A stretch of 46,733 nt of DNA, from the UHGV virus genome UHGV-0157529; one strand, given 5' to 3'. Below the pieces are notes generated by a model that worked only from the letters and a program-made list of their open reading frames with translations, did no database searches and was not told where the DNA came from. This document shows, piece after piece, positions 1 through 46,733 of the stretch; positions within the stretch are counted from its first letter, which is position 1, and each line of letters begins with the position of its first letter. The stretch is from a virus. The position numbers and the translations under genes are program-made.

Positions 1-612
1 CCAGCCTCGGACGACCGCCGATGGTCTGCCGCCATGCCGGGAGTGCGGGAGCAACGAGGCAGTGTACAGCCCGTCGCGGATAGCAAAAAAGGACTGGATA
101 TGCAACCAGTGCCTACGCAGACGCCATCGGGCAGCCAAAAAAGAGCGTATTCAACGGGGACAATAGCCGATGTCCAAAAACTCATCAGCGGCTGGGCCGA
201 CCGCACTTTCCCTGATCGAACCATCGGTGAAGCAATCCTCAAGCTTAAAAAGGAGCTGGCCGAGCTTGACACTGCTGGCTACCTTGACGCGGGGGAGTTT
301 GCGGATGTCGCCATACTACTGCTCGATATCGCCCAGCTTGCCGGAATCGACATCGCCACCGCAGTGGCAAACAAGATGACTATCAATGAACGCCGTGTGT
401 GGAAGCGCCTTGAAGACGGCACACATCAGCATGTTGTCGATGGGGGTCGTACTGACGGGGTTGACCCGATTATTAGACGAATCAGTCTTGGAGATGTGGA
501 CCCAGTCAACCACAACGTAGAATCCCATCTCTGTGTCGTCTGCGGACGCAGATTCCCTTCTGAAAGCAGCAGAGCAACCCATTACCAGAACGAACACGGG
601 AGAAAGAAATGA
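1..612 (+). CDS. MazG-like nucleoside triphosphate pyrophosphohydrolase domain protein with a C-terminal C2H2-like zinc finger. The reading frame is open from nt 1 (first in-window ATG at 34; SD-backed ATG at 100), so it is probably 5'-truncated by the window edge and continuous with the ORF at 46461-46733.
   Basis: Translation carries MazG-family motifs (WADRTFPDRT...AILKLKKELAELD...EFADVAILLLDIAQLAGIDIATAV...RRVWKRL). The C-terminus HLCVVCGRRFPSESSRATHYQNEH fits C-x2-C-x12-H-x4-H. No stop occurs between nt 1 and 33 in this frame. Its TGA overlaps the next start (ATGA at 609). Confidence 0.6.
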   Translation, partial: PASDDRRWSAAMPGVREQRGSVQPVADSKKGLDMQPVPTQTPSGSQKRAYSTGTIADVQKLISGWADRTFPDRTIGEAILKLKKELAELDTAGYLDAGEFADVAILLLDIAQLAGIDIATAVANKMTINERRVWKRLEDGTHQHVVDGGRTDGVDPIIRRISLGDVDPVNHNVESHLCVVCGRRFPSESSRATHYQNEHGRKK

Positions 613-1211
613 AGATGACCCCCCGCGACCTGATGCGCGCCCAATATGTGAATCGCTGGCAGATAGTGCCGACATCTCGACCGCAGAACGTAGCGCAGCA
701 CTCATGGGCGGTGGCTATGCTGGCCATGGACCTGTGGTGTCGCCGGACTGGTGGCCAACCCGGCGAGGCAGCCACCGATGTAGAGCTGGGCAGAATAGCT
801 GTTATGGCTCTGTGGCACGATGCCCCGGAGGTCTTCACAGGTGATATCAACACACCGACCAAGATTTATCTAGAAGCAGGCCGCCGACTGGCCAACCTTG
901 AGATGACCGCTGGCCGCGCCTATGTGAACGCTGTAGGCGCTGGCGACACCACGGACGACGAGCATGACTTGTTGGTCCGGGTGGTGAAGATTGCCGACTT
1001 CCTCGAAGCTATGTATTGGCTCATGGAACACGGCGAGGGCCACTACGCCAACGACCAGTTACATGGGCTAAATCAGCGTTTCAACGACTATCTGGAAAAA
1101 CACGCCCCCCTGTGGCGAAACGCAGCCTTGGAGCTATGGAAGGACTTAAGCGACGTGAACGCAGAAACAACCACCTTCCAGCGCGTAAACCGTTTGATGG
1201 CGGGAAGCTGA
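609..1211 (+). CDS. HD-domain phosphohydrolase, YfbR-like 5'-deoxynucleotidase family (DatZ-like dATP/dAMP hydrolase candidate)
   Basis: Motifs QNVAQHSWAVAMLAM and ALWHDAPEVFTGDINTPTKIY match the YfbR H...HD...D signature. It is translationally coupled to the upstream gene (ATGA) and the downstream gene (TGATG). Confidence 0.7.
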   Translation: MKMTPRDLMRAQYVNRWQIVPTSRPQNVAQHSWAVAMLAMDLWCRRTGGQPGEAATDVELGRIAVMALWHDAPEVFTGDINTPTKIYLEAGRRLANLEMTAGRAYVNAVGAGDTTDDEHDLLVRVVKIADFLEAMYWLMEHGEGHYANDQLHGLNQRFNDYLEKHAPLWRNAALELWKDLSDVNAETTTFQRVNRLMAGS

Positions 1212-1636
1212 TGAGAAAAGAAGAACAGAAGATGTGGGACCGCCTCCGCCCGAAGCTCCAAGCGCTCGGGGTGAGGTATGACCGGGTCGAGAGCCCGGCC
1301 ACCGCGCCCGACTTCCCGGACCTCGCTTACACGTGGGGTCGCCGTCACGGGTTCATCGAGCTAAAAGCCACGGAAATCGATGACAAGGGCCGTCTGGACC
1401 TGCGGCATTTCACCGCTGGTCAGCGGCGTTGGCTCCGCAACCGCGCCCCCGGTGGCGCTACGTGGCTCCTCATCAGGGTGTATGCCCCAGATGAGATGTG
1501 GATTGTGCTTAAGGGCACGCTCGCATTTGCAATCTCCGAGCGCCCGACCATGCTCGACCTCGAACCGTTTACCTATCTGACCCTTAATGGAGGAGTGACC
1601 CCCGAATGGCTCCGACAGTGGCTCTTGCAGGCATAG
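1211..1636 (+). CDS. hypothetical protein with a PD-(D/E)xK / VRR-NUC-like nuclease motif
   Basis: Start codon overlaps the upstream stop (TGATG). The sequence PDFPDLAYTWGRRHGFIELKATE resembles the D...E.K nuclease core. Third codon positions are GC-rich. Confidence 0.45.
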   Translation: MRKEEQKMWDRLRPKLQALGVRYDRVESPATAPDFPDLAYTWGRRHGFIELKATEIDDKGRLDLRHFTAGQRRWLRNRAPGGATWLLIRVYAPDEMWIVLKGTLAFAISERPTMLDLEPFTYLTLNGGVTPEWLRQWLLQA

Positions 1637-1935
1637 CCCTATTCCCGGTGGAGGCCGGGAACTTCACCTCACCATCCTCGACGGCTGAGATGGCCACCCA
1701 CACCCCGCTGGCTGACTTCCTGACGTTCTGGAAGGGTATACCTTTGGACGTCGAGAAAGAGCTCCGGGGTATCAGTACCGACTGGGATTCTAAAGGCAGG
1801 CTATATCACCCCACCATCGACGGGCCGGGGACCACTCTGGCGCACGTGATGCCCTTCCTGACCCCCGCTTGCCAAAGCCAGATACATGCTCTGCTAGCCG
1901 TCCACTATTACGGGTTGTTCGGTGCTACGCCATAA
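1606..1935 (+). CDS. hypothetical protein (weak call; overlaps the 3' end of the previous gene by 30 nt)
   Basis: 109-codon ORF preceded by GGAGG about 13 nt upstream. No recognisable motif. Confidence 0.25.
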   Translation: MAPTVALAGIALFPVEAGNFTSPSSTAEMATHTPLADFLTFWKGIPLDVEKELRGISTDWDSKGRLYHPTIDGPGTTLAHVMPFLTPACQSQIHALLAVHYYGLFGATP

Positions 1936-1939
1936 TATA

Positions 1940-1968
1940 TTGACAAAGGGCCCCAACCATGTTATAAT
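1940..1968 (+). promoter_or_regulatory. sigma70-type promoter cassette P1 (TTGACA-17-TGtTATAAT), followed by a GC hairpin (1979-1996) and the GGAGATAGAGAGATG leader
   Basis: Perfect -35 and -10 hexamers with a 17-bp spacer and an extended TGn. The same cassette recurs at least 9 more times in the window. Confidence 0.75.
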
Positions 1969-2021
1969 ATAGTTTCTAGGGGCGAGGCCCCGCCCCAACA
2001 GAGCAACCCGGAGATAGAGAG

Positions 2022-2912
2022 ATGAGCAAAGCAATCGTAGACAACAAGCTGGTGGAAGTGACTATGGTTAACGGCGGCTGGACCACCTACGTGGACCACA
2101 ACGGTGCAACCCGCAAAATCCGCAACAGCCAAGTGAACTCCACCCCCGCTGATGTGGCGGCGCTGGAAGCACTGGCCGAAGCTGGTGACACCAGTGCACA
2201 GGACAAGCTGATTGCGGCATCTGACAAAAACCACCCGGTGCTGGACCTCGACGCGACCTTCAAGTGCGACCGCTGCGAAACCGAATTCCTGTCGCAGGAG
2301 GCCCTCGATGAGCACATCGCCGAACACGACGCACCGAAGCCGCGCAGTTCGATGGTGATGCTGCTGACTGGCGGCAAGAAGTCGGCAGAGGTGCTGGAAC
2401 GCCGCGCCGCAGCGAAGGAGCAGAAACGCATCGAGGAAAACACCAAGAAGCCGCGTATCACCCGCTCCAACCTTGTTGCTGTTACCCGCTGCCCGGAGTG
2501 CGGCGGTGACGTGGCGCACCCTGACGACGGTTTGGCGAATTGCAAAGCGTGTGACTGGGAAGTGGATTTCACCGACAAAGAAGCGAAGATAGTGCCAGAT
2601 ATGACCCGCTACACCGTGGGCAAGGGTACGACTGTGACCGGGCGTAAAACCATCGACATCGACGACTACGTAGCCGACAAGCTGCGCGGTCTCGACCTCG
2701 AAGAGATTTACTCCTATACCGCAGCAGTGCTAGCCGAGCTGGGTGTCGAATACATAGGCACAGGCAGCAAGAAAATGCATTGCGGGCTGGGCGACCTGAA
2801 AGCCCGCTACAACCACCTGAACGTAGGGATGCAGCGTATGAACCTCGGAAACCTGCTCCGTGGCACGATGCGCCGTCTCGGAATGGAAACCCTGCCAGAG
2901 GTAGACGCATGA
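2022..2912 (+). CDS. early protein carrying a classical C2H2 zinc finger and a CxxC...CxxC zinc ribbon (putative nucleic-acid-binding regulator)
   Basis: FKCDRCETEFLSQEALDEHIAEH matches F-x-C-x2-C-x3-F-x5-L-x2-H-x3-H exactly. CPECGGDVAHPDDGLANCKAC is a zinc ribbon. First gene downstream of P1; GC3-rich. Confidence 0.7.
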   Translation: MSKAIVDNKLVEVTMVNGGWTTYVDHNGATRKIRNSQVNSTPADVAALEALAEAGDTSAQDKLIAASDKNHPVLDLDATFKCDRCETEFLSQEALDEHIAEHDAPKPRSSMVMLLTGGKKSAEVLERRAAAKEQKRIEENTKKPRITRSNLVAVTRCPECGGDVAHPDDGLANCKACDWEVDFTDKEAKIVPDMTRYTVGKGTTVTGRKTIDIDDYVADKLRGLDLEEIYSYTAAVLAELGVEYIGTGSKKMHCGLGDLKARYNHLNVGMQRMNLGNLLRGTMRRLGMETLPEVDA

Positions 2913-3235
2913 AAGCAAGAACAACAGAGGGCCAGTTCATGGAGCTGGCCTCCGCTCTGACCAATCAGATGGCCGATGCCGGGGTGTTCTCCGGCCTCAA
3001 CTTCGAGATAGATCCCAAGGTGCGGTCTATCCGGTTCTCGACAAACAATGGGGTGGTGATGTACTACCCAGCATCGAATATCTGGCAATATAAGCAGATG
3101 ACGTTCGAATCCAATATGGCCGATTTCATCGACTGGATGAAAGAATTTTATGGAAACGACCGAATCAAGCGCGACCACCTGCGGGTTGGACCCACTCGCC
3201 GGGAGAGGGAGCGTAAGCGGCAGGGCACTCTCTAA
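2909..3235 (+). CDS. hypothetical protein
   Basis: ATGA overlap with the upstream gene; 108 aa (MKARTTEGQF...). Confidence 0.5.
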   Translation: MKARTTEGQFMELASALTNQMADAGVFSGLNFEIDPKVRSIRFSTNNGVVMYYPASNIWQYKQMTFESNMADFIDWMKEFYGNDRIKRDHLRVGPTRRERERKRQGTL

Positions 3236-3238
3236 ATA

Positions 3239-3267
3239 TTGACAGCGCCCCCAACTTATGATATAAT
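3239..3267 (+). promoter_or_regulatory. sigma70-type promoter cassette P2 (TTGACA-17-TGaTATAAT) plus GC-rich element and GGAGATATAGAGATG leader
   Basis: Consensus hexamers with 17-bp spacer; the spacer carries the shared CCCCCAACTTATG sequence. Confidence 0.7.
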
Positions 3268-3312
3268 AAAATTTCAGGGGGCGGGGGCCCTCGGCAAACC
3301 GGAGATATAGAG

Positions 3313-3570
3313 ATGAACACAGTAAACCTGCACGAAGTGATGACCGAGGATGGCGTCAGCACCGACGTCAATGCATGCGTGGGCCTCCGCCGCGTTGACG
3401 GAAAAGAGTGGCATCATGGTCGTCTGTTCACTGGCGGCTTCCAATGTGTAGGTGACGAGGAAGTCGGATACCACGATATCTACGTGAGCGCAGCGTCCCA
3501 AGCCGAGGACCTCATAGAAAAAATCAAAGCCCGTGGCGTGGTAGACCTGCGCCACTGGGACGAAATCTGA
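3313..3570 (+). CDS. hypothetical protein
   Basis: Start sits at the end of the conserved leader. Followed by a UUCG-tetraloop hairpin (3579-3594). Confidence 0.6.
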   Translation: MNTVNLHEVMTEDGVSTDVNACVGLRRVDGKEWHHGRLFTGGFQCVGDEEVGYHDIYVSAASQAEDLIEKIKARGVVDLRHWDEI

Positions 3571-3607
3571 ACATCAACGGGGCCTTCGGGCCCCAAAGGA
3601 GACCGGA

Positions 3608-3835
3608 GTGGTAATTACTATCAAGGCAAAATCACCGGGCCGCTGGAACGTGTACCGCTCCGAGGGCCTGACAGCTAACGTCGCTGCTGGGCGTATCGTC
3701 CGCACTCAATCGCTGGGCGCGGTTAAAGCATATTACTTCGACCTAGAAGAACGCCGCCACGACCTCGGCTCCCTGCCGCGCGACTGGCCAAACCAAGTGA
3801 AGAAAATCCTCAAAACGGAGAGCAACCATGACTAA
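3608..3835 (+). CDS. hypothetical protein (GTG start)
   Basis: AAGGAG lies 6 nt upstream of the GTG start. Confidence 0.4.
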   Translation: MVITIKAKSPGRWNVYRSEGLTANVAAGRIVRTQSLGAVKAYYFDLEERRHDLGSLPRDWPNQVKKILKTESNHD

Positions 3836-4694
3836 GCAACACGAGTTAATCAAGGCCGTCACTGTGTACGGTCTCATGCAGTCGGTGAGCGAAATCCTGA
3901 ACGATCGCTTTACGTCCAATGGCCGCACCCTCAATGACAATAGCTGGCGCACCTGTAATGCGTACAGCCTCGAAGAGGGTTTCTGGAAGGCCGTACGCGA
4001 CCGCGATTTCGGGTCGGTGCTGACCTACTCCGCCATGCTGGCCGGGCGTGGCCGCAACGTGGCCGATTTAATCATGGATAGCATCGACACACTGTCAGAA
4101 AGAATCGGGAGAATGGAGACCGTAGCCGCCACCAACAGGGATACTATCCGTCTGCAGCGTACCACTATCGAGCAGCATGAAAAGACCATCGCCGACCTGC
4201 GGGCCAAGCTGGGCGGCGATACGGTATCTGCGCCGGGGCCTTATCAACACCTCGGGTGTGGGGTAGCCCTTGAGTCAGAGCGCATCCCAGAACTCTGCTA
4301 TTCGGTCGAGACCGTATGCGGTGAGCTGGTGGAGACCATCGTCATTCAGGGTGACCCGGCGGCGGTGAAAGATTTGGTGCAGGCCGTACGCGCAGAGCAT
4401 ACCACCTGCACGGGGCCGAGCGGCGACGTTAGCGTCACCTTGGATTCATTAAAGACGAAAGAAGACCCGATAATTGCCGGGACGGTGGCCGCTGCGGTGG
4501 CCGATATATACGGCAATAAGCGCATCGATCCTAAGGTAGAGATGGCCAAGGCGTGGCATGGTGGGGAATATGGTGCTGTGGTAAGCGCTATGGCAGCCCT
4601 CCACGACGCCGGGAAGGACCCTGTGGCGTTCATTAAGCGCATGAAGAACGTGGCAGTTCCGCCCGACAACGACGAAGCGGTACGACAGGCGTAA
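3828..4694 (+). CDS. hypothetical protein
   Basis: 288 aa; overlaps the previous stop. A bidirectional terminator follows. Confidence 0.6.
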   Translation: MTKQHELIKAVTVYGLMQSVSEILNDRFTSNGRTLNDNSWRTCNAYSLEEGFWKAVRDRDFGSVLTYSAMLAGRGRNVADLIMDSIDTLSERIGRMETVAATNRDTIRLQRTTIEQHEKTIADLRAKLGGDTVSAPGPYQHLGCGVALESERIPELCYSVETVCGELVETIVIQGDPAAVKDLVQAVRAEHTTCTGPSGDVSVTLDSLKTKEDPIIAGTVAAAVADIYGNKRIDPKVEMAKAWHGGEYGAVVSAMAALHDAGKDPVAFIKRMKNVAVPPDNDEAVRQA

Positions 4695-4707
4695 TCTTTT
4701 GTAAAAC

Positions 4708-4734
4708 GGCGGGGGCTAACGCCCCCGTTCTTGT
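4708..4734. terminator. rho-independent terminator, apparently bidirectional
   Basis: Stem CGGGGGC / GCCCCCG (7 bp) with loop TAAC, flanked by TTTTGTAAAA on the 5' side and TTCTTGT on the 3' side. Confidence 0.6.
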
Positions 4735-4758
4735 AGACGACAACTAAAGGCAATAGGT

Positions 4759-5190
4759 ATGAAACCCATCCGACATATCCAGCAGTGGGACCAGCGCTCG
4801 TGCGTGGCCGCTTGCCTCCTCATGATGACCGATTTGGAGACCATACCGGAGCTTAGGACGGCCATAGACAAATTGTACAAGCGCTCGGGCAATATCCACG
4901 CGTGCTGCAGCCTCCTGAGCATCCCGGCGAGGACCGTGAACTGGCCAGCCGGGCAGTGGATTGAGGAGGGCGGCATCTATCTGGTGTATGCCGTGAAGGA
5001 CACCGAGTTCCACGCCCTCATCGTCGATTGCCGCGGCAGTGAGCCCGTGGTGCATGACCCCGCTCGCGGCTGGGGCGACGGCGAGTTCGTCTGGGACGAC
5101 CCGGAGCCGTGTTCCGGCCAGAGGGTGCTGAAAAACAGCATGTACCTCCCGGCCCTCCGCTTTATGGACAAGAACTGGTACAATCATTAG
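4759..5190 (+). CDS. putative papain-like (C39-like) cysteine peptidase domain protein
   Basis: QQWDQRSCVAACLLMM resembles the Q...C-x-A-C-L-x-M motif of C39 peptidases. A downstream His (EFHALIV) is present. Confidence 0.4.
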   Translation: MKPIRHIQQWDQRSCVAACLLMMTDLETIPELRTAIDKLYKRSGNIHACCSLLSIPARTVNWPAGQWIEEGGIYLVYAVKDTEFHALIVDCRGSEPVVHDPARGWGDGEFVWDDPEPCSGQRVLKNSMYLPALRFMDKNWYNH

Positions 5191-5204
5191 GGTAAAGACG
5201 ACTA

Positions 5205-5233
5205 TTGACTCGGGCCCCAACCTGTAGTATAAT
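5205..5233 (+). promoter_or_regulatory. sigma70-type promoter cassette P3 (TTGACT-17-TATAAT) plus hairpin GGCCCCGCTGTGGGGCC and leader GGAGATACAGAGATG
   Basis: Hexamers with a 17-bp spacer. Confidence 0.65.
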
Positions 5234-5275
5234 GTACGTAAGGCCCCGCTGTGGGGCCAGTGCGGAGATACAGAG

Positions 5276-5644
5276 ATGAAAAGAATAACGGCAATATTGA
5301 TAGCATCGGCGGCTTTCATTGGGTGTTCATATGTAGGCGGTGCTAGCGCAAGAACCCTCCCGGACTGCGAAGCGATAGCTGCCAGCTACTTCGACAAGCA
5401 TCTTGGTGGCAAGTACGCCAGCATCCGGGACTTCATCGTAGACCAAGACGCGGAAGTATGTGGAATGGGGGCGACATTCAAAAAGAGCGGGGCGACCGAG
5501 GCCGAGGCCGCGAAGTTCCTCGACAAGGTGCGTGCTGCGGGTCTCGCGAAGGCGGTAACGAAGCGCGAGATGGACGAGACCGTCGAAGTGATTAACCGTA
5601 AAAGCGTGATGTTCATGGCCGGATTTAGGGGATACGTCGAATGA
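5276..5644 (+). CDS. secreted / lipoprotein-like early protein
   Basis: The N-terminus MKRITAILIASAAFIGCSYVGGASA looks like a signal peptide, with either a lipobox-like FIGC or an SPase I site ASA. Confidence 0.55.
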   Translation: MKRITAILIASAAFIGCSYVGGASARTLPDCEAIAASYFDKHLGGKYASIRDFIVDQDAEVCGMGATFKKSGATEAEAAKFLDKVRAAGLAKAVTKREMDETVEVINRKSVMFMAGFRGYVE

Positions 5645-5964
5645 AAATCCAGAACATCCTCTCCACTCGCGGGAACGACTTCACGGCCAAGATGGTCTGT
5701 GAGTACTGCGGTGCTACCGCTGTACTGAGCGACGGCTATCACGACGCCTTCTACCACAACCACGTAATACCCTGTATCAACTGCCCAGTCTGCGACCAGA
5801 ACCACTACGGGGAGTCTACCGAGCTCGGTGAAGTCCGCAAGCGCCGCGAGCACGTAAATGGTGCAGCCACCCTTAAAGAGGTGATGTCATACAACAAGCC
5901 GCCCCGCGCCGAAGAACGCGAGGACGAAGAAGGCAAACTGCTGAAAAACAGAGGGACATACTAA
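5641..5964 (+). CDS. Cys-rich putative zinc-binding protein
   Basis: CEYCG...CINCPVCDQ motifs. ATGA coupling to the previous gene. Confidence 0.5.
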   Translation: MKIQNILSTRGNDFTAKMVCEYCGATAVLSDGYHDAFYHNHVIPCINCPVCDQNHYGESTELGEVRKRREHVNGAATLKEVMSYNKPPRAEEREDEEGKLLKNRGTY

Positions 5965-6359
5965 TGAGCGAGAAACACAACCCAGTGCTGTACGGCACAC
6001 TCGACCAGACCAACCCGGTCGGCCTACCCGGTGGCACTCCGGCCCTGACGACCCTGCTGTACAGGGTCTGTGACCAGAACAACGATAAGTTCGACGAGGC
6101 TTGCCGCTTAATCTGCCTGTTCCTCGACAAAAAAGCCGAGCTGGACGGCGAGCCGCTCAAGAAGCTGGAACGTTTGATGGGATATGTGCAGAACGGGACA
6201 GACGGTATTATCAGCCTGTTCCAAGACGATGCGACCATGGACTATGGTATAAGTCACCGCGCTCCCGGCAAGGCGACCAACGACTGGACGGCATATGGTA
6301 AATCGCTGACCGGGGCCATCAACAAAGCATATAACGAGCATAAGGATGACTGCGAATGA
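5964..6359 (+). CDS. hypothetical protein
   Basis: 131-aa ORF; TAATG overlap with the previous gene. Confidence 0.5.
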   Translation: MSEKHNPVLYGTLDQTNPVGLPGGTPALTTLLYRVCDQNNDKFDEACRLICLFLDKKAELDGEPLKKLERLMGYVQNGTDGIISLFQDDATMDYGISHRAPGKATNDWTAYGKSLTGAINKAYNEHKDDCE

Positions 6360-6793
6360 AAAAACATAGCGCATGGCAGAAGGACCGCAACCGGGTCCGC
6401 CGCCTCAACCGTGAAGTAAAGGCCATCGTTCGCCGCGACGACGCGCGGGCCGAATGGTTCAACAGCCGCCACGCCTTTATGCTGGAGGAGAACCGTAGGA
6501 ATTGCCTACCCGGTGGGTGTTGGTTTATCTGTCCCGGCCACTATACCGACCAATGGCCAAGCGTAGATGATATGTTTATCGAGGTGACACACGGTGACTT
6601 AGATGATTCCGGAAACTGGGACGTGCCCGAGGGCCTGTATGTGGTGCGCCGTGTGGCCCACGAGAGCCTGTTCGATAAACTACTGAATGTCACCGATGTT
6701 AACACTGGCCACAACTACCATCTGTGGTTCCCACGTCAGGGCCATCGCGTAGTGTCCTGTGGCGAGGTAGGGGAAACACCATGGCTGGATTAA
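6356..6793 (+). CDS. hypothetical protein
   Basis: 145-aa ORF; ATGA overlap with the previous gene. Confidence 0.5.
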   Translation: MKKHSAWQKDRNRVRRLNREVKAIVRRDDARAEWFNSRHAFMLEENRRNCLPGGCWFICPGHYTDQWPSVDDMFIEVTHGDLDDSGNWDVPEGLYVVRRVAHESLFDKLLNVTDVNTGHNYHLWFPRQGHRVVSCGEVGETPWLD

Positions 6794-7245
6794 TGGTAAC
6801 GATCGCCATCATCAAGGTGGTGTGCTATGGTCTAGCGCTTGGGGCGCTGCTCGTTATGGCGCTGCTGGGCCTGACCATGTTGGGCGGCACTCTGGCGCGG
6901 GGCTGGGACATCGTGGTCCAAAGGCTGGTGGTCGCCCTGCAAAAGCTCATCCCGCGCGACTGGGCCAAGGAAAAGCGAAAGGAGGGTATTGTCTTCTGCT
7001 CCGAGGTCTGGTACTATTTGCCAGTGGCCGCCCGGTGGATAACCCTCGACCGTTGGGGCCTAGTCCAGTGCTGGCAGGCTAAGCCGACGTACTGTCCTGA
7101 GGACGGTGAATGGTACAGCCACCAGCTAAACCCTCCACATGATGTGGGTAGTATGAGCGACGAATGGATGGCCCCCTATGCATGGCTGACTGAGCCGCCG
7201 ATACAGGCCCTGCCGGAAGACATCTATGAAATCGACGAAGCGTGA
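6793..7245 (+). CDS. membrane protein (alternative start at 6781)
   Basis: Hydrophobic N-terminal region VTIAIIKVVCYGLALGALLVMALLGLTMLGG. TAATG overlap with the previous gene. Confidence 0.45.
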   Translation: MVTIAIIKVVCYGLALGALLVMALLGLTMLGGTLARGWDIVVQRLVVALQKLIPRDWAKEKRKEGIVFCSEVWYYLPVAARWITLDRWGLVQCWQAKPTYCPEDGEWYSHQLNPPHDVGSMSDEWMAPYAWLTEPPIQALPEDIYEIDEA

Positions 7246-7552
7246 CGCACTCTTTAAACGTGCAGCCGCACCTAAACCAAAATTCGCCCGTGGGACGCGG
7301 GCATCCTTTCAGTCATGCATCGACCCGAACATCAACGGGACGGGGCTGGTGGTGGAAGCGAAATATTTCCCCAAGGACGGGCGTTTCCTTTACACCGTGG
7401 AGCGTGAGGTCGCCGGGTCGGTCCAGCGGTACACGTTCTTCGAGGAGGAGATGGCCAAACCGAGTGACCCTAACTTCAAGGACAGAAGACAAATAACGCT
7501 CGACCTGTGCGAGCACATCTACGACGATCATACCAGAGATTTAGAGATATGA
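7226..7552 (+). CDS. hypothetical protein
   Basis: 108-aa ORF. Confidence 0.45.
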   Translation: MKSTKRDALFKRAAAPKPKFARGTRASFQSCIDPNINGTGLVVEAKYFPKDGRFLYTVEREVAGSVQRYTFFEEEMAKPSDPNFKDRRQITLDLCEHIYDDHTRDLEI

Positions 7553-7752
7553 AACCTGAATACATCGCATATGGCATCTACGTCTACATGATTATTGGCT
7601 TTTGCTTGTGGCTATGGGCCTTTGTTGACGACGCTGTCACCGGGAACCGTCACCGTGGCGGCATAGTAGTGACTATCTCCACGCTGGTGGCCATGCTGCT
7701 AGGCTGGCCGTTCCTTGTGGCGGACCTGACGAAGTCACGGGGGCGAAGATGA
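7549..7752 (+). CDS. small membrane protein
   Basis: ATGA overlap with the previous gene and preceded by GAGATTTAGAGATATG. The translation MKPEYIAYGIYVYMIIGFCLWLWAFV is hydrophobic. Confidence 0.45.
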   Translation: MKPEYIAYGIYVYMIIGFCLWLWAFVDDAVTGNRHRGGIVVTISTLVAMLLGWPFLVADLTKSRGRR

Positions 7753-8546
7753 GCAAGAAAAAGCCTGTCAAGTACGAACATCTTGAGCAATGGGTGAACA
7801 ACCACGACGCCCGAATCACACAGGCCGGGTCCTATCCTGCGCAGGTCGTGTTCATTCTGGAGGAAGACCTCAAAGCGTTCTGCAAGGCCATGGGCCTGCC
7901 TCACATGGGCCCACTGTCTGGCGGTCGCTGCTATCGCATGGCTGGTGACGACTTCTTCGCGGTGGTCCTGTGCTTCAAGCTCGACTCCGGCCAGCTAATC
8001 AGCGCCATCGCCCACGAGTGCTACCATGCGCTAAACTTCATTTATAAGCAGTACGGTTCGCGGCACTCGCTGAGGAACGATGAGCCAGCAGCCTACCTAA
8101 TCGGCCATATGGCCTACTACGCCACCAAATTCATCGAGGAGCAGGGCTATGCACTCATTAACACCGGAGCTATCGGCACAGATGCAACGGATAGCGGAGA
8201 TTTACGGGCAGAGTTATCTAGTCCGCAACAAGGACGGGTCGATGGAAGTGCTGAGCCCGCAACAGGTGCTGGTGGTCCAGTTCCACGGCAAGAGCCCCAC
8301 GAAGAGTCTCCCCGGTTCCTTCCGTGTGGGTGCTTTGGGAGATGCACTGGACACGGCGGCGGACTGACTCACACCTGCCCGACCTGTGGCGAAGAGATAC
8401 CAAATCCGCCAGCATACCACGTGTGCACCCGACCTAGGGGTGCAGCAATGAAGCAATGCGACCGCTGCGGTGTGCAGTATTTCGCCACCCACAAACACTC
8501 ATGCAACAAACACGATATAACGGCTTGGGAGGCCAAACATGAATAA
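7749..8546 (+). CDS. protein with an HExxH metallopeptidase-like motif (N-terminal part) and a C-terminal zinc ribbon. The central 8150-8367 segment looks non-coding in this frame (see findings).
   Basis: AIAHECYHAL is an HExxH motif. The C-terminus carries CPTCG...CDRCG. Between about 8150 and 8367, codon third positions are AT-rich in this frame and GC-rich in the +1 frame. Confidence 0.4.
   Translation: MSKKKPVKYEHLEQWVNNHDARITQAGSYPAQVVFILEEDLKAFCKAMGLPHMGPLSGGRCYRMAGDDFFAVVLCFKLDSGQLISAIAHECYHALNFIYKQYGSRHSLRNDEPAAYLIGHMAYYATKFIEEQGYALINTGAIGTDATDSGDLRAELSSPQQGRVDGSAEPATGAGGPVPRQEPHEESPRFLPCGCFGRCTGHGGGLTHTCPTCGEEIPNPPAYHVCTRPRGAAMKQCDRCGVQYFATHKHSCNKHDITAWEAKHE
8149..8367 (+). CDS. alternative-frame ORF with good coding statistics and its own SD; it is either a separate overlapping gene or evidence of a frameshift or indel within the 7749-8546 gene
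   Basis: GAGGAG lies 8 nt upstream of the ATG. GC3 is high. The peptide ELSAQMQRIAEIYGQSYLVRNKDGSMEVLSPQQVLVVQFHGK looks protein-like. Confidence 0.35.
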   Translation: MHSLTPELSAQMQRIAEIYGQSYLVRNKDGSMEVLSPQQVLVVQFHGKSPTKSLPGSFRVGALGDALDTAAD

Positions 8547-8805
8547 GACCCTTAATACCCAGTTAGTACTCGACCATAAGCTTAACGCCGAGGCGGTGGA
8601 CTTCATCGAACGGCTGGTGGCTGCTGGCCATGAAATCCACCTGACCGACGGCGGACCGCAGCCCATCTTTACTATCGGCGCAGGCAAGACCCCATTCAGT
8701 GGCAAGACGGTGATGGAGATAGCCAAGTGGGCCCCTAAAGAGCATCTGCTGGTGCAGGCTTTCCGTGTGCTGTCCAAAGCCTACCCTAATGGGATGGGGG
8801 CCTGA
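8539..8805 (+). CDS. hypothetical protein
   Basis: 88-aa ORF; ATGAATAA overlap with the upstream stop. Confidence 0.5.
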   Translation: MNKTLNTQLVLDHKLNAEAVDFIERLVAAGHEIHLTDGGPQPIFTIGAGKTPFSGKTVMEIAKWAPKEHLLVQAFRVLSKAYPNGMGA

Positions 8806-8921
8806 TGGACTTTGACATAGGACCATATGTCATCGGCGTGGCTGTCGGTGCGTTGTCCGTGGGCCTTGTGTGGACGCTGACCGTCCTGTTTCCTACTGAT
8901 TGCGACGAAGTGCCGTAGCGC
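8805..8921 (+). CDS. small hydrophobic peptide (38 aa)
   Basis: TGATG overlap with the previous gene. MDFDIGPYVIGVAVGALSVGLVWTLTVLFP is transmembrane-like. Confidence 0.3.
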
Positions 8922-9075
8922 GTGAGCGGGTGGCCGCGACATGGAAGTCGCCCTTCCCCGGCCCGCGCAGCCTGCTAAACTCCGATTACGGGGGTATTGA
9001 CAGGCCGTCATATGATATGGTGTACTAATAGTGGGCATATCTGCCCCAACCCCGCATCTCAATGGAGAGAACCTA

Positions 9076-9434
9076 TGCAACGTCTTATGACCCTAATCGC
9101 AGAACTAACTACGTGGGAGGTGGCTTTTGGTATGGCATTCGCCCTGCTGCTGGCCATGTTCCTCGTACCTATGTATGTCCTGCACTGTACCGGGCGCAAT
9201 CTGCTCAATAGCAACGTCGGGCGCATCGCGCATCGTGAGTGGATGTTAGGCCATACGGTCATTATCTACAGCCGATGGCCGATATCCAAGGGCTGGCAAG
9301 GCTGCAGTGCCCGTAAGAAGACATCGCGATCGTGTATGCTGACTATGGGGACCGTGCAGATTGAGCTTATTCGCCTATGCCGTTCACAGGCCCCCATCTA
9401 CAGGGCAACGTACAACAACGCCAAGAAAGCTTGA
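9076..9434 (+). CDS. small membrane protein
   Basis: GGAGAG lies 6 nt upstream of the ATG. VAFGMAFALLLAMFLVPMYVL is a transmembrane segment. A degenerate promoter cassette lies upstream (TTGACA at 8997). Confidence 0.4.
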
Positions 9435-9459
9435 CCCGGTTGGGCCCGTGTGCTATACT
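9431..9459 (+). promoter_or_regulatory. sigma70-type promoter cassette P5 (TTGACC-17-TGcTATACT). The -10 element is bracketed by a GGGCCC...GGGCCC palindrome (9441-9466).
   Basis: Hexamers with a 17-bp spacer. Leader GAGATAAGAGATAAACAAGATG. Confidence 0.6.
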
Positions 9460-9491
9460 GGGCCCTCCTACTGAGATAAGAGATAAACAAG

Positions 9492-9872
9492 ATGAAAGCC
9501 AAGAAGATAAAAGATATCCATATCTTGCTGCGTAACGGTCGCTGGACAGCTGTATGGCAGGGTGAGGTTTGCCGCATCCAGAACGACAAGAGACGTCGCG
9601 CCCGTGTGGTCCGCCACGCTGATTCCCCCGAGCATGCTCTGGTATCCCTACTTGCCAGTGAGATATTAGAGCCTCAAAAAAGAGGCTACATGCTGGCACA
9701 CGCCGAGTTCATCGTATGGCTTGAGCAAAACGGCCTTATGTCCCTGCGCAGGGCGCTTCTGTTTGCTAAAGGCGACGGCTGGGACGGTCAGAGGAATCTG
9801 GAGGCTGTCAGGGTATATCGGGAATGGCGAAGGGAGCAAACGAGCGGTACTTCTCTTGGCCTCGTAGAATAG
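9492..9872 (+). CDS. hypothetical protein
   Basis: 126-aa ORF, followed by a terminator. Confidence 0.55.
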   Translation: MKAKKIKDIHILLRNGRWTAVWQGEVCRIQNDKRRRARVVRHADSPEHALVSLLASEILEPQKRGYMLAHAEFIVWLEQNGLMSLRRALLFAKGDGWDGQRNLEAVRVYREWRREQTSGTSLGLVE

Positions 9873-9896
9873 CCCCGGTACGTATGTAGCTGGTCG

Positions 9897-9931
9897 GCCT
9901 CTCGATTCAACGGAGAGGCTCCCGTTTTCTA
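9897..9931 (+). terminator. rho-independent terminator
   Basis: Hairpin GGCCTCTCG-ATTCAA-CGGAGAGGC followed by TCCCGTTTTCT. Confidence 0.6.
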
Positions 9932-9948
9932 AAGATGGAGAACAAAAG

Positions 9949-10179
9949 ATGGCAAAAGTAAGACTGACTCTGGAGAGTCTGGGTAGCACTCACCAGATGG
10001 ACCCGGTAGGACAGGGCGAAGCTGTGGACCGCATGGTCGAATATGTAGGCCGTCGCTGGGATATCGACGACGAAGAGCGGGCAGAACTGCAGGTAGTCAT
10101 CGATGCGGTAGTCATCACTGGCGCGCCGCTTGAATATAGCGGGTTGGCCCCGATTTACGTTAAGGTAGAGAAAGCATGA
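9949..10179 (+). CDS. hypothetical protein
   Basis: GGAGAA SD; 76 aa. Confidence 0.45.
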   Translation: MAKVRLTLESLGSTHQMDPVGQGEAVDRMVEYVGRRWDIDDEERAELQVVIDAVVITGAPLEYSGLAPIYVKVEKA

Positions 10180-10457
10180 ACATCACGCGATTCGCAGTAC
10201 ATGTAATCAGCAACGGGGTATTGATGGCCGCCGTCAGTGGTCAGACACACGTGGTCGGTCAGTTCGCACCGCACATAGGCGAACTGGTGTCCGGGTTCGA
10301 AGGCAGCACTATGGGCCCTAGTCTCGCAGACCACGTCATTAACAGCCATATGAAGAACGCCGTGGACCAGAGCGACACCCGGCGAATCGTCATCCCGGCT
10401 GGCCATAAGTTAGAGATAGTCATCACGCCGATGTGCTCGGTCATGGGAGGGGTATGA
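10176..10457 (+). CDS. hypothetical protein
   Basis: ATGA overlap with the previous gene. Confidence 0.45.
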   Translation: MNITRFAVHVISNGVLMAAVSGQTHVVGQFAPHIGELVSGFEGSTMGPSLADHVINSHMKNAVDQSDTRRIVIPAGHKLEIVITPMCSVMGGV

Positions 10458-10714
10458 TGAGCAGACCTGTTTATAATGTAGTCGTCCAGACCGTGTGGCC
10501 GGACGGGTTCAAATCCGAGGTACGGGGCGATGCCATCACCACGACCCGTAAGACGCTGGAGGCCCTGCGCCGGGCGGGGGTCTACTACTACCAGCCAGTC
10601 CCTGCTGCACTGCGCGACGCGACGCAGAGGGTGGCCGCGCGGTATATCCCGGAGGCTACTATTGAAGCTGGTCTCGCCACCCTTAATGTCCGCTGTGCGA
10701 AGGAGGGCGTATGA
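10457..10714 (+). CDS. hypothetical protein (alternative start at 10454)
   Basis: GGGAGGGG SD; TGATG overlap with the previous gene. Confidence 0.45.
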   Translation: MSRPVYNVVVQTVWPDGFKSEVRGDAITTTRKTLEALRRAGVYYYQPVPAALRDATQRVAARYIPEATIEAGLATLNVRCAKEGV

Positions 10715-11034
10715 TACCTATGATTAAAGTAGTCCTGCTGGCTGGCCCGGCACTAATAGCCTCGTACACGGCGCACCCGACCCGCATCAAAGACCCACGG
10801 GGCGGCATCATGCAGGCACTAGAACTGGACCTGATGGACCTGCTCAACCTGTCGGACACGGCCTGTATCCCATCGGTAGTCCACCGCGACCTGACCGAGG
10901 CCATTAGTCGGGTGATTGACGGCGATAGCCCATCCCGTGAGCCTGCAGTCATCGGCCTGTCCCACCACGCGGGGCGACACCCGATGTACAAGGGCGGGGT
11001 GGCTCCGATATCGGTCCGGGTGGTCCGTTGCTAA
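10711..11034 (+). CDS. hypothetical protein with a hydrophobic N-terminus
   Basis: ATGA overlap with the previous gene. Confidence 0.45.
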   Translation: MIPMIKVVLLAGPALIASYTAHPTRIKDPRGGIMQALELDLMDLLNLSDTACIPSVVHRDLTEAISRVIDGDSPSREPAVIGLSHHAGRHPMYKGGVAPISVRVVRC

Positions 11035-11129
11035 ACGTGGGATTGACACCAGCCACACGGATGTGGTATCACGCGCGCGCTTATCACGTGTGTATGCGGA
11101 GCATTGTCGCCCGTCGACACATTCAATGT

Positions 11130-11720: not shown

Positions 11721-11723
11721 GCG

Positions 11724-42942: not shown

Positions 42943-44820
42943 ATGGCTATCTTTCCGAGATTAGAAAACTACGATGTGGTGGCTATCGATACCGAGACCA
43001 CCGGACTGGACTGGTTCCGTGGGGATAAGCCGTTCGGTGTAGCTATCGCCCTGCCTAATGGGTACAGTGAATATTACGATATCCGTAAGGACCTCGCTGC
43101 ATACCAGTGGCTCCGTGACTCGGTGCATAAGATTCGCCGCCCGGTAAACCACAACATGAAGTTCGATATCCACATGTTGCGTCAGGTGGACGTGATGGTC
43201 AACACCCGTAAGGCTGAGTGTACCCAAATCCGCGCGGCCCTCATCAACGAGCATCTGATGAGCTACAGCCTCGACGCTCTGGCCAAGAAATACCTCAAGG
43301 CCGAGAAGGTCGACGACATCTATGAGGAGCTGGCCAAGCTGTTCGGCGGCCCGGCCACTCGTAAGGCCCAAGCCCCGAACTTCCATCGTGCGCCCGAGTC
43401 CATGATGCGCCGCTATGCCAAGGTCGATGCCGAGTTAGCCCTGCAGCTATGGCAGTGGCAGGAGGAGGAAATCGCCCGTCAGGACCTCGGCGAGGTGTGG
43501 CGTCTTGAGATGCGCCTGCAGCCGCATGTCATCGAGTCAGAACGCGTAGGCATCAGGGTAGACGAGGAGCTGGCGAAGAAGCGTATCAGCGACCTCACCA
43601 AAATCGTGGACCAGACCAGAAAGGAAATCAACCGACTGGCTGGATTCGAGGTCAACCCAAACCCATCGGGGTCCATCAAAAAGCTGTTCGAGCCGTACAA
43701 AGAGGGTGATCAGTGGTATGCCAAGGATGGGACCCCAATCGACACGACCGACGCCGGACAGCCGTCGCTGGGGGCCGATGCCCTCAAGCGCATCAAGCAC
43801 CCAGCAGCTGGCCTTATTCTTAAGTGCCGCAAGATGATAAAGACCCGTGATACCTTTATCTCTGGCCACGTGTTGGGTAATATCGTAAATGGGTACGTGC
43901 ACCCGAACATCAACCAGACCAAGGGCGAGGTAGGCGGGGACAATTCCGGGACCGAGGGTACTGGCACTGGCCGCCTGTCGTATACACGCCCGGCCTTACA
44001 GCAAATCCCGTCACGCGACAAGGAGGTGGCAGCGCTGGTGCGGCCAATCTTCCTGCCCGATGAGGGCCAGCTGTGGACCTACGGCGACCTCGACCAGCAC
44101 GAATTCAGGATATTCGCCCACTACGCGAACCCGAAGAGCCTAATCGAAGCGTACGCCGCAAATCCGGACCTCGACATGCACCAAATCGTGGCCGACATGA
44201 CTGGGATGCCGCGCTCGGCCCCGGCATCGGGCGGTGCGAACGCCAAGCAAATCAACCTCGCTATGGTGTTTAACATGGGCGGTGGTGAGCTGGCGTCCCA
44301 AATGGGCCTCCCATATACATGGGAATCCGCAGTGTTCAAGGACGAGAACGAGGAGCGCCGATTCAAGAAGGCCGGAGAAGAGGCACTCGCGGTCATGGAG
44401 ACTTACTACCGGGCAGTACCGGGTGTGCGTGAGGTGGCTCGCCGGGCCGGGTCGCTGGCGAAGTCCCGAGGATACGTGAAGACCATGTACGGGCGCAAGA
44501 TACGCTTCCCCGGCGGCAAATTCACGTACAAGGCGTCCGGTCTGGTGTATCAGGGTACGGCTGCCGACTTCAACAAGCGCAACATCTGCGAGATAGCGGA
44601 GTATATCGAGTCCGAGTGCCCGCATAACCGCTTCCTCCTCAACATCCACGACGAATATAGTATGTCGATGATGGATGAGGGCGACATCACAGTGAAGCAC
44701 CTGCGCGAGATGAAGCGATTAGTGCAGGACAAGGGTCTGCGGGTCCCTATCCGCATCGACTTTGGGGGACTGGCCCCGAATTGGTGGGAAGCGACCAAGA
44801 TGGACGTCATCACCAAATGA
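42943..44820 (+). CDS. family A DNA polymerase with a 3'-5' exonuclease domain (DpoZ candidate if the genome carries Z-base)
   Basis: Exo I motif AIDTETTGL, motif A DLDQHEFRIFAHY, motif B ANAKQINLAMVFNMGGG, motif C NIHDE. Confidence 0.85.
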   Translation: MAIFPRLENYDVVAIDTETTGLDWFRGDKPFGVAIALPNGYSEYYDIRKDLAAYQWLRDSVHKIRRPVNHNMKFDIHMLRQVDVMVNTRKAECTQIRAALINEHLMSYSLDALAKKYLKAEKVDDIYEELAKLFGGPATRKAQAPNFHRAPESMMRRYAKVDAELALQLWQWQEEEIARQDLGEVWRLEMRLQPHVIESERVGIRVDEELAKKRISDLTKIVDQTRKEINRLAGFEVNPNPSGSIKKLFEPYKEGDQWYAKDGTPIDTTDAGQPSLGADALKRIKHPAAGLILKCRKMIKTRDTFISGHVLGNIVNGYVHPNINQTKGEVGGDNSGTEGTGTGRLSYTRPALQQIPSRDKEVAALVRPIFLPDEGQLWTYGDLDQHEFRIFAHYANPKSLIEAYAANPDLDMHQIVADMTGMPRSAPASGGANAKQINLAMVFNMGGGELASQMGLPYTWESAVFKDENEERRFKKAGEEALAVMETYYRAVPGVREVARRAGSLAKSRGYVKTMYGRKIRFPGGKFTYKASGLVYQGTAADFNKRNICEIAEYIESECPHNRFLLNIHDEYSMSMMDEGDITVKHLREMKRLVQDKGLRVPIRIDFGGLAPNWWEATKMDVITK

Positions 44821-45275: not shown

Positions 45276-46448
45276 ATGAAAGACATTAAGAGCAACCGCC
45301 CGGTAGTAACAGCACCGAAAGCAACCATCGTCGTTGACGCCCAGTTCGGCAGCACCGGTAAGGGCCTCATCGCTGGGTATCTGGCAGAACGCGACCAGCC
45401 CGATGTAGTGATGACCGCATGGAGCGCAAACGCTGGCCACACCTACATCGATGCGAATGGCCGTAAATTCGTGCATTGCATGCTGGCCAACGGCATCGTA
45501 TCGCCGAATCTCGAAACCGTCCTCATCGGGCCGGGGTCACAGATGGATTGGTCGCTGCTGCTGCGCGAAATCGAGTCCTGCGCAGACCTGCTGGCGGGTA
45601 AGAGCATTTTTGTCCACATGAACGCGGCTATTATCACTGATGCCCATCGTGCCGAAGAGCAGGGCCCGATGACCAAAATCGGTTCGACCAAGAAAGGCTG
45701 TGGTGCGGCCATGATTGCCAAAATCCGCCGCAACCCGGATGACCAGAACACAGCGGGGGCGATGCGCTCTGACCTGCTGGCCGAATGGCGCAAGATGCAA
45801 TGTGCTAACCCAGACCTGCAGGTCGTGGAACTGGGTATTGTATCAAACGCCGAATACCTAGATATGGTCTACCGCGCCCGCCGCATTCAGGTAGAAGGCG
45901 CACAGGGTTTCAGCCTCGGCATCAACAACGGCTTTTATCCGTATGTGACCTCTCGTGAGTGCACCCCCGCGCAGGTCTGCGTAGACGTGAACCTGCCGCT
46001 GGCCTTCGTGGATAAAGTAGTAGCCACCATGCGTACCTACCCAATCCGCGTAGCCAACCGCTACAACGACAAGGGCGAGCAAATCGGCTGGTCCGGCCCG
46101 TGCTACCCTGACCAGAAAGAGCTGGACTGGAAGGCCGACCTCGGAATGGAAGCAGAGCTTACTACCGTGACCAAGCTCCCGCGTCGCATCTTTACGTTCT
46201 CCTACGAGCAGACCAAGGCTGCGCTGAGCGTCATCCGTCCGGACGAGGTGTTCCTCAACTTCTGCAACTATATGGAACCGGACGAAGTGGCTGAGGTGGT
46301 GGGCACCATCGAGCGTGCAGCGCATGAGCTGAAAATCCCCGGCCCTATGCCACTGGCCCGTTACTACGGCTATGGCCCGACTGTGACTGATATCTACACC
46401 GAAATGCAGGTACAAGAGCCTGAATTCGGCGGCAACATCAGCGAATAA
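45276..46448 (+). CDS. purZ: adenylosuccinate synthetase-family enzyme with Asp replaced by Ser in the P-loop; candidate PurZ (N6-succino-2-amino-2'-deoxyadenylate synthase)
   Basis: FGSTGKG aligns with PurA QWGDEGKGK (Asp to Ser). SANAGHT aligns with GGHNAGHT. 390 aa, a short archaeal-like PurA length. Flanked by PolA, MazG and HD genes. Confidence 0.6.
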   Translation: MKDIKSNRPVVTAPKATIVVDAQFGSTGKGLIAGYLAERDQPDVVMTAWSANAGHTYIDANGRKFVHCMLANGIVSPNLETVLIGPGSQMDWSLLLREIESCADLLAGKSIFVHMNAAIITDAHRAEEQGPMTKIGSTKKGCGAAMIAKIRRNPDDQNTAGAMRSDLLAEWRKMQCANPDLQVVELGIVSNAEYLDMVYRARRIQVEGAQGFSLGINNGFYPYVTSRECTPAQVCVDVNLPLAFVDKVVATMRTYPIRVANRYNDKGEQIGWSGPCYPDQKELDWKADLGMEAELTTVTKLPRRIFTFSYEQTKAALSVIRPDEVFLNFCNYMEPDEVAEVVGTIERAAHELKIPGPMPLARYYGYGPTVTDIYTEMQVQEPEFGGNISE

Positions 46449-46460: not shown

Positions 46461-46733
46461 ATGACCGGAATCAAGTTTGACCAAGGCAAGGCCCCGCTTA
46501 GTCTGATTGACCCGCGTTTCACCGAGGAGGTGGCGCGGGTTCTGGCTATCGGGGAACAGAAATACGGACGAGCGAACTGGCAAGGACTCAAAGTGGAGCG
46601 CCTGCTAGACGCCGTAAAAAGACACACACTTGAATTAGAGAAGAGCAACGACCATGACGACGAAACTGGACTCCACCACGCAGCACACGCCGCCTCCGGA
46701 CTTATGTTCATCTTCTGGCTCCTCAACAACCGA
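46461..46733 (+). CDS. dATP/dGTP diphosphohydrolase N-terminal-domain protein, 3'-partial. The ORF runs off the window end in frame with the ORF entering at nt 1.
   Basis: KFDQGKAPLSLIDPRFTEEVARVLAIGEQKYGRANW...GLHHAAHAASGLMF resembles the dGTP_diPhyd_N family. There is no stop before the window end. 273 nt equals 91 complete codons. Confidence 0.55.
   Translation, partial: MTGIKFDQGKAPLSLIDPRFTEEVARVLAIGEQKYGRANWQGLKVERLLDAVKRHTLELEKSNDHDDETGLHHAAHAASGLMFIFWLLNNR

Follow-up and report, generated by a model that had tools for sequence, protein, structure and literature searches.

The viral genome record UHGV-0157529, a single strand of 46,733 nucleotides (nt) that we analysed at full length and call the window, begins and ends inside open reading frames (ORFs) that run into one another when the ends are joined. 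The joined frame would encode MazZ, a nucleotide pyrophosphohydrolase with an N-terminal domain, a MazG-like catalytic domain and a linker between the two. The locus raises two questions. Does one mazZ gene span the ends of a complete genome, or do pieces of two genes merely happen to meet in frame? And what does the DNA of the linker, which lies just past the junction, encode?

A fused mazZ between purZ and datZ is of an ordinary and already known type. The new part, as judged from the sequence, is that the MazZ tether codes in two frames and overprints a small, conserved zinc-ribbon gene, a predicted gene that also crosses the junction. We think it probable, with good though not full confidence, that the window is a complete genome cut in mazZ and that the linker overprints a nested zinc-ribbon gene, expression of which is predicted. 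In the explanation we propose, the linker nucleotides, which purifying selection maintains in the +1 frame, would encode there a small zinc-ribbon protein with four cysteines and a basic C-terminal helix; the likeliest mechanism would be a nested gene that initiates independently and is overprinted on the linker; and frame 0, that of mazZ, would need only freedom from stops, so that both enzyme domains stay tethered.

One mazZ gene across the ends of the record

The initial annotation described an ORF at 46461 that is open to the last nucleotide over exactly 91 codons, and a frame open from nt 1. Both descriptions are accurate: from the ATG at 46461 to 46733 there are 273 nt without a stop, and the first stop in frame 1 is the TGA at 610-612. 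Across the junction the residues FWLLNNR run on into PASDDRRWSAAMPGVREQRG. The joined protein, put at about 295 amino acids (aa), is indeed a single ORF, of 294 aa plus a stop (885 nt). An in-frame join alone is weak evidence for one gene: one join in three is in frame by chance, and the stop-free codons past the junction number just 11. The same chance lends the opposite reading its prior: the ends might not be adjacent, the contig might be a fragment, and a truncated N-domain gene might meet a separate MazG gene by coincidence. Split genes for the N-domain and for the MazG-like domain (DUF550) do exist, in the loci L015 and L031.

Homology to relatives settles whether the ends are contiguous. 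A 3-kb junction query made of the last 1500 and the first 1500 nt of the window was searched against a phage collection. It gave one alignment to Klebsiella phage vB_Kpn_K21lambda1 (K21lambda1), covering 100% of its length in the interior of that phage at 87.6% identity, and it aligned over 97-99% of its length to the phages VLCpiS6a (Klebsiella), PMBT28 (Salmonella) and PSA28 (Pseudomonas). Searches with both window halves, together with a direct blastn comparison to the complete K21lambda1 sequence, placed the junction bases themselves. The counterparts of nt 46733 and nt 1 are adjacent in all four relatives (33236/33237 of OY978848, 14189/14188 of ON602731, 32024/32025 of MG641885 and 19419/19420 of MZ089737). 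Each relative has a single annotated coding sequence (CDS) there, of 873 nt in PMBT28 and 885 nt in the other three, flanked by the genes for an adenylosuccinate-synthetase homologue and for an HD hydrolase. That one gene crosses the junction, as had been proposed, is borne out by this single CDS and by a protein alignment without a gap at the join. Nor is the agreement confined to the junction. The window wraps once round the 47,505-bp circle of K21lambda1 (14240-46733 corresponding to 1-33236, and 1-13814 to 33237-47223); 42,785 of its 46,733 nt are aligned by blastn, and its 46.7 kb compare with 46.9-48.4 kb in the relatives. With the junction bases neighbours in four phages, the join free of gaps, the full circle colinear and the fused CDS equally 885 nt long in three relatives, we regard a coincidental meeting of two fragments as very improbable.

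Ends that are adjacent in relatives, together with full colinearity, point to a complete genome, with mazZ as the gene in which its record was cut open. On this comparison, the window is a complete siphophage genome of the PMBT28/K21lambda1 type, linearised arbitrarily within mazZ, and its relatives make 2-aminoadenine (Z) DNA. Of the earlier proposal of a whole, circularly permuted genome, the first half stands, given the colinearity with the K21lambda1 circle and the agreement in size; the second applies to the record only. An exact terminal direct repeat of 8-400 nt was sought in the window and none was found; the virion DNA may be permuted by headful packaging or have fixed ends. An ORF lister gives the ATG at nt 34 as a start, an artefact produced by the cut; the relatives have GTG there.

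The domain search of the joined ORF that the initial annotation had suggested returned both enzyme domains and a C2H2 match below threshold. In Pfam, PF18909 (dGTP_diPhyd_N, DUF5664) matches residues 3-97 (E=9.1e-25; 87 bits, cutoff 27), spanning the junction (46467-46733 plus 1-18) and covering profile positions 4-99 of 99; PF04447 (dATP-dGTP_PPHyd, DUF550) matches residues 154-236 (E=2.4e-8; 34.5 bits, cutoff 23). Residues E176, E179, E190 and D193, which we take to be the acidic metal/NTP site of MazG-like enzymes, are invariant across 19 homologues. A search of the PDB matched residues 144-237 to residues 9-103 of the 111-residue chain in the crystal structure of cyanophage S-2L MazZ, a MazG-like (d)GTP pyrophosphohydrolase (7ODY; E=8.5e-15). 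The catalytic domains of the two are homologous; the S-2L enzyme differs in being a single domain without the DUF5664 N-domain, the linker, the zinc ribbon or the C2H2 tail. In the tail, zf-met matches residues 269-287 (Pfam E=0.011; 16.5 bits, under the cutoff of 21.2), PDB matches to C2H2 fingers are weak, and the CxxC...H motif is found in 12 of the 19 aligned MazZ homologues, the third zinc ligand varying. AlphaFold2 (AF2) models the fused MazZ with two confident helical domains; its predicted local distance difference test (pLDDT) scores are 78-95 over the 5' part of the CDS (codons 1-91) and 82-85 in the C2H2-like tail. A Shine-Dalgarno-like run, GGGGAAGGGG, lies upstream of the mazZ ATG.

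The architecture is a known one, as claimed: of 64 database homologues, 62 have PF18909 and PF04447 in one ORF. One of the 62 is a 385-aa protein from Acinetobacter phage SH-Ab 15497, whose UniRef name is dATP/dGTP diphosphohydrolase. PMC12884076 describes the DUF5664-DUF550 fusion as this phage's dATP/dGTP pyrophosphohydrolase, and conversion of dATP and dGTP to dAMP and dGMP plus pyrophosphate has been reported for it (cited in PMC12884076). By homology, the MazZ of the window is presumably a dATP/dGTP pyrophosphohydrolase, which would supply dGMP to PurZ and help deplete dATP. Like it, the SH-Ab 15497 protein (P0032, AUG85482.1) combines both Pfam domains in one ORF, is flanked by purZ and datZ, has a family-A polymerase and a single-stranded-DNA-binding (SSB) protein encoded nearby, and carries a nested +1-frame zinc-ribbon ORF in its linker. 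It differs in its sequence (about 42% identical in an alignment covering 77% of the query), in having another C-terminal extension without a C2H2 motif, and in a longer linker: the distance from DDRRW to the W-A-D motif is 76 codons there and 61 in the window. The closer phages PMBT28 (AUZ95523.1), K21lambda1, VLCpiS6a and PSA28 have orthologues of mazZ in the same gene order, in a region 79-89% identical in nucleotides. They share the 873-885-nt CDS, the C2H2 tail and a nested peptide that is 96-100% identical; the C-terminal 50 residues of MazZ vary, and PMBT28 has a deletion of 4-5 residues.

Two observations on mazZ itself may be added. A frame-0 ATG at 100-102, inside the linker, has AAGGA 6 nt upstream and consists of the last base of an Ile codon of the nested gene and the first two bases of a Cys codon. 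In 12 of 15 lineages the triplet here is a start codon (ATG, GTG or TTG); the other three have CTG. A DUF550-only isoform made by internal initiation at this ATG is possible but unproven. Opposite mazZ lie two antisense ORFs, 46394-46729 (111 aa) and 316-705 (129 aa), both on the minus strand and with no sign of being genes.

The linker read in the +1 frame

For the initial annotation, the stretch between the domains was protein sequence like any other. Here its interpretation needs a qualification: selection acts on the +1 frame. Read in that frame, the linker gives DGLPPCRECGSNEAVYSPSRIAKKDWICNQCLRRRHRAAKKERIQRGQ followed by a stop, a CxxC-x18-CxxC zinc ribbon with a basic tail. The Cys codons lie at 35-37, 44-46, 101-103 and 110-112 (CRECGSNEAVYSPSRIAKKDWICNQC), and the tail reads LRRRHRAAKKERIQRGQ. 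With its 5' part, at the other end of the record, the whole nested ORF (46654..46733 plus 1..166) comes to 81 aa (Table 1).

How do we know which frame is selected? In five relatives the zinc-ribbon peptide is nearly invariant while the frame-0 linker varies. We counted variable sites among six close genomes by their frame-0 codon position. Over positions 1, 2 and 3, the N-domain has 7, 4 and 21 such sites (n=32) and the MazG domain 12, 2 and 67 (n=81). In the linker (nt 25-165) the counts are 17, 4 and 3 (n=24). Since position 1 of frame 0 is position 3 of the +1 frame, the linker evolves as a coding sequence of the +1 frame. Comparison with PMBT28 makes the same point: 132 of 141 linker nucleotides are identical, as are 38 of 47 residues in frame 0 and 47 of 47 in the +1 frame, and the nine nucleotide differences produce nine residue changes in frame 0 and none in the +1 frame. 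By tblastn, the 54-aa +1 peptide is 100% identical in PMBT28 and K21lambda1.

These figures bear on the possibility that the +1 ORF is not expressed, being a relic of an ancestral separate gene or the by-product of some other constraint, with the linker a variable tether. A relic would not hold 47 of 47 residues identical while frame 0 takes nine residue changes from the same nucleotides, and a three-base periodicity of substitution is the signature of a protein-coding sequence, unlike that of an RNA or DNA element.

Structure prediction distinguishes the two readings of the linker as well. In frame 0, AF2 finds no secondary structure (pLDDT 31-37; below 50 at residues 101-129 and 133-138 of MazZ). 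The model of the +1 peptide, made with only five homologues in the alignment, shows a zinc knuckle that leads into a long basic helix, and its mean pLDDT is 79.

Two other properties of the locus were considered as evidence and dropped. The length of the nested ORF is uninformative: 4% of 82-codon +1 spans in the large ORFs of this genome are open, and 4 of 36 large ORFs carry a +1 ORF of at least 81 aa starting with ATG. Avoidance of T-ending codons before AA, AG or GA codons (0/237 versus 67/548) is true by construction for loci chosen as fused.

Table 1. Positions of mazZ, the predicted nested gene and neighbouring genes in the window
Feature	Position (nt)	Strand	Remarks
mazZ CDS, 5' part	46461..46733	+	codons 1-91; most of the DUF5664/dGTP_diPhyd_N domain
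mazZ CDS, 3' part	1..612	+	codons 92-294; stop TGA 610-612; joined gene 885 nt
MazZ inter-domain linker	25..165	+	residues 100-146; frame 0, stop-free, sequence unconserved, predicted disordered
DUF550/MazG-like pyrophosphohydrolase domain	157..438	+	PF04447 and match to structure 7ODY
MazZ C-terminal C2H2-like motif	532..597	+	C269-x2-C272-x12-H285-x4-H290
Nested +1-frame ORF (predicted gene), 5' part	46654..46733	+	ATG 46654-46656; S/T/P-rich extension over the last N-domain helices
Nested +1-frame ORF (predicted gene), 3' part	1..166	+	codons from nt 2; stop TAG 164-166; zinc ribbon and basic tail
purZ, adenylosuccinate-synthetase homologue	45276..46448	+	PF00709 (E=4e-31); directly upstream of mazZ
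datZ, HD-domain dATP triphosphohydrolase	609..1211	+	PF12917 (E=3e-19); so annotated in K21lambda1
Family-A DNA polymerase with 3'-5' exonuclease, DpoZ-type	42943..44820	+	PF00476, PF01612; DNA polymerase I in relatives

The ribbon extends far beyond the close relatives. Of 18 fused mazZ loci, 17 have the zinc-ribbon motif at the linker position, in the +1 frame between the DDRRW that ends the N-domain and the start of DUF550, although identity falls to about 40% in some. Among the 17 are Providencia phage Kokobel2, SH-Ab 15497, six contigs from IMG/VR and four from Logan or ENA, with MazZ identities of about 37-67%. Its common form is C-x2-C...[FY]-x-P-S-R-x2-K-x-D-W-[IV]-C-x2-C, followed by a basic tail. 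Across clades, the mean pairwise identity is 0.37 in the +1 frame, with five invariant columns, against 0.25 and one column in frame 0. A regular-expression scan of some 60 loci found the motif only at the linker position and in three further loci, L015, L023 and L031. A relic would not be expected to keep the four Cys, the PSR, the K-x-D-W and an open frame in lineages so far apart.

Nested gene, frameshift product or relic

If the ribbon is translated, where does its translation begin? The three further loci are instructive, because in them the ribbon is a gene of its own. L015 has three separate ORFs, for the N-domain (with its stop just past DDRRF), a 66-aa zinc ribbon and DUF550, and the ATG of the ribbon falls within the DD codons. 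L023 lacks the N-domain; its 67-aa ribbon ORF comes right after purZ and overlaps an N-terminal extension of a DUF550-only gene. In L031, where N-domain and DUF550 are split, a 71-aa ribbon ORF lies upstream of purZ and has an AAGGAG ribosome-binding site. Other loci appear able to start the ribbon for themselves: the likely ATG in L009-L015 lies 5-19 codons before the first Cys, and in L009, L010, L012 and L014 a +1-frame stop stands immediately 5' of the first ATG. The Shine-Dalgarno matches of the ribbon ORFs in L009-L015, L023 and L031 range from -5.8 to -11.9 kcal/mol. Gene callers have also recorded stand-alone small proteins with the motif, which phmmer retrieved with the window peptide from 1.84 billion representatives (E=4.6e-7 to 8e-4). 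One of them, P0068, is the product of a 67-aa gene directly after a PolA gene. Along with P0066, P0070 and P0071 it has no Pfam family, and the four, all small phage proteins, resemble the window peptide in the pattern PCRxCG...Y-x-PSRI-x-K-x-DWIC-x2-C and a basic helix, at 41-49% identity; they differ in coming from non-overlapping genes and, in some cases, in carrying extra C-terminal modules (HNH-like in P0066). It is these stand-alone and self-starting ribbons that favour a nested, independently initiated gene over the alternatives.

For the window, the start must be sought further upstream. In all 12 enterobacterial, Providencia and Acinetobacter loci an ATG or GTG 38-56 codons before the first Cys begins a +1 frame that no stop interrupts, and for this reason we placed the ORF at 46654..46733 plus 1..166. 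The start of the nested gene would accordingly be the ATG at 46654, giving a predicted protein of 81 aa.

Several observations weigh against the nested gene. In the window, the ATG at 46654 is the sole ATG, GTG or TTG of the +1 frame before the first Cys, 38 codons upstream of it; its Shine-Dalgarno match is weak (-2.9 kcal/mol); and no member of the window's clade has a start codon near the zinc ribbon. The N-terminal extension that such a start would add has no conservation of its own in the +1 frame. The nested ORF is unannotated in all six GenBank relatives, four gene callers run on K21lambda1 missed it, and a word-indexed search of 5.8 billion called proteins with a 14-sequence zinc-ribbon alignment found no match. 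Pfam and PHROG scans of four zinc-ribbon peptides gave nothing significant, a PDB sequence search with the ribbon profile gave nothing below E=0.2, and Foldseek comparison of the ribbon model with the PDB gave only non-significant matches (E of at least 0.5), to ribosomal protein uS14/eS29 and to the Rad14 zinc finger, small nucleic-acid-binding proteins of the C4 zinc type. Finally, the fused mazZ of L057 has a shorter linker and no zinc ribbon. From this ribbon-less locus it follows that the ribbon is dispensable for MazZ itself.

Three of these points, the lack of annotation in the records, the weak start signal in the window's clade and a MazZ that manages without the ribbon in L057, speak for an unexpressed ORF. 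Set against the conservation described above, they leave that explanation a small share of our belief, somewhat smaller than that of the frameshift considered next. The retrieval of homologues depended on the method, as it took an exhaustive phmmer search to find them. The best Pfam and PHROG matches to the ribbon, IS1595 or primase zinc ribbons and Lar-like entries, were rejected, all having E>0.005.

A different explanation accepts that the ribbon is translated but derives it from the N-domain frame. Programmed +1 (or -2) frameshifting just after the DDRRW codons would yield an N-domain-zinc-ribbon protein of about 146 aa beside full-length MazZ, in the manner of dnaX or of the G/GT tail chaperones. 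Such an event would account for the absence, in the window's clade, of any ATG, GTG or TTG from after the ATG at 46654 to the first Cys, and for the abruptness with which selection moves from frame 0 to the +1 frame, within about 10 nt past DDRRW. Of the 10 fused loci displayed, 9 also use a rare Arg codon (CGA or AGA) for the second Arg of DDRR[W/F], and L012 and L013 carry AGA TTT AAA at the DDRR site. Against frameshifting, among five additional loci, a rare Arg codon is found in the pair only in L054, and there at the first Arg. No slippery motif is common to the DNA around DDRRW in 15 lineages. In L009, L010, L012 and L014, where the +1 stop abuts the ATG, ordinary initiation explains the ribbon, and the ATG of L012 has a good Shine-Dalgarno match. 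The ribbons of L023, L031 and P0068 stand alone, without an upstream N-domain, and in no database protein does PF18909 continue in frame into this ribbon. We therefore judge frameshifting to be an unlikely source of the ribbon and prefer the nested gene with a start of its own, whose protein we predict to be expressed.

The loci that depart from the common arrangement, L015 (1258-2216), L031 (15-230 and 1435-2143), L023 (1465-1941) and L057 (1264-2364), are a series for reconstructing how fusion and overprinting arose.

Overprinting as such is familiar from phiX174, in which B lies within A and E within D, each read out of frame. The resemblance is that two frames share one DNA and that one product is constrained while the other is tolerant and disordered. 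The window differs in that the tolerant reading is the tether of an enzyme, in that the constrained reading is also a stand-alone gene in related phages, and in that expression is predicted. Has the nested ORF been noticed before? PMC12884076, PMC12944874 and bioRxiv 10.1101/2025.10.22.683976 contain neither the word 'zinc' nor an overlapping ORF in mazZ, 'frameshift' is absent from PMC12884076 and PMC12944874, and literature searches on PurZ with zinc and on DUF5664 turned up nothing relevant. Provisionally, we regard the nested ORF as undescribed in a literature coverage that excluded the original 2021 Science papers.

The Z-nucleotide cluster and the place of the ribbon

In the window, mazZ lies between purZ and datZ, near dpoZ and an SSB-like gene, in an order common to six annotated relatives. 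The K21lambda1 counterpart of purZ is annotated as a 2-aminooxy adenylosuccinate synthetase. The stop of mazZ and the start of datZ overlap as ATGA (609-612), and the same 4-nt overlap in four close relatives suggests that translation of the two genes may be coupled. The purZ-mazZ-datZ cluster of PMBT28 gives incorporation of deoxy-Z (dZ) in E. coli (PMC12944874).

Labels in the relatives are uneven, those of mazZ ranging from 'nucleotide pyrophosphohydrolase' to 'endolysin' and 'unknown function'. The orthologue in VLCpiS6a (L002, ON602731.1; 1788-2672) is labelled 'endolysin; inhibits RNA polymerase' in GenBank, and that in K21lambda1 'unknown function'. A 142-aa gene after datZ is labelled 'DNA helicase' in both K21lambda1 and VLCpiS6a. 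All three labels, 'endolysin', 'unknown function' and 'DNA helicase', look like annotation errors. Downstream of the Z cluster, at 2022-2912, a 296-aa ORF with the motifs CDRCETEF...H...H and CPECGG...CKAC carries the annotation 'unknown function' in the relatives. Elsewhere in the window, 32466-35337 has no blastn match to K21lambda1 and is the largest unaligned block; its G+C content is 0.50-0.53, against about 0.57. It corresponds to the tail-fibre/tail-spike region of the relative and is probably a swapped host-range module.

What might the ribbon do? Its basic tail, the non-significant resemblance to uS14/eS29 and Rad14 and its setting in a replication module together suggest, as a weak inference, that it probably binds nucleic acid in replication or the Z-nucleotide module. 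Among the stand-alone homologues, P0066 (114 aa) has a C-terminal CxxC...HH...CRKHH region resembling an HNH nuclease motif, a hint that the ribbon could act as a module for targeting nucleic acid. A bolder version, to which we give only limited credence, is that the ribbon is an expressed and unrecognised member of the Z cluster, a small nucleic-acid-binding factor working with DpoZ, PurZ, MazZ and DatZ, and that overprinting locks it to the module.

That the genome is complete and mazZ intact is of use for annotation and unsurprising. The nested ORF, which gene callers consistently miss, would add a conserved, unannotated small protein, as yet a predicted one, to the best-studied gene cluster for Z-DNA. 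It occurs in phages that have been used experimentally, SH-Ab 15497 and PMBT28. It may also confound heterologous expression: a native mazZ fragment carries the ribbon ORF, and a codon-optimised one destroys it. If the bolder version is true, all constructs with the native mazZ sequence, such as the PMBT28 cluster on the dZ plasmid, may have carried the ribbon too. For the biology of these phages, the locus would be a clean natural case of an enzyme whose inter-domain tether is the out-of-frame reading of another gene. Because split, fused, ribbon-less and relocated arrangements survive in related phages, the evolutionary route to it can be reconstructed.

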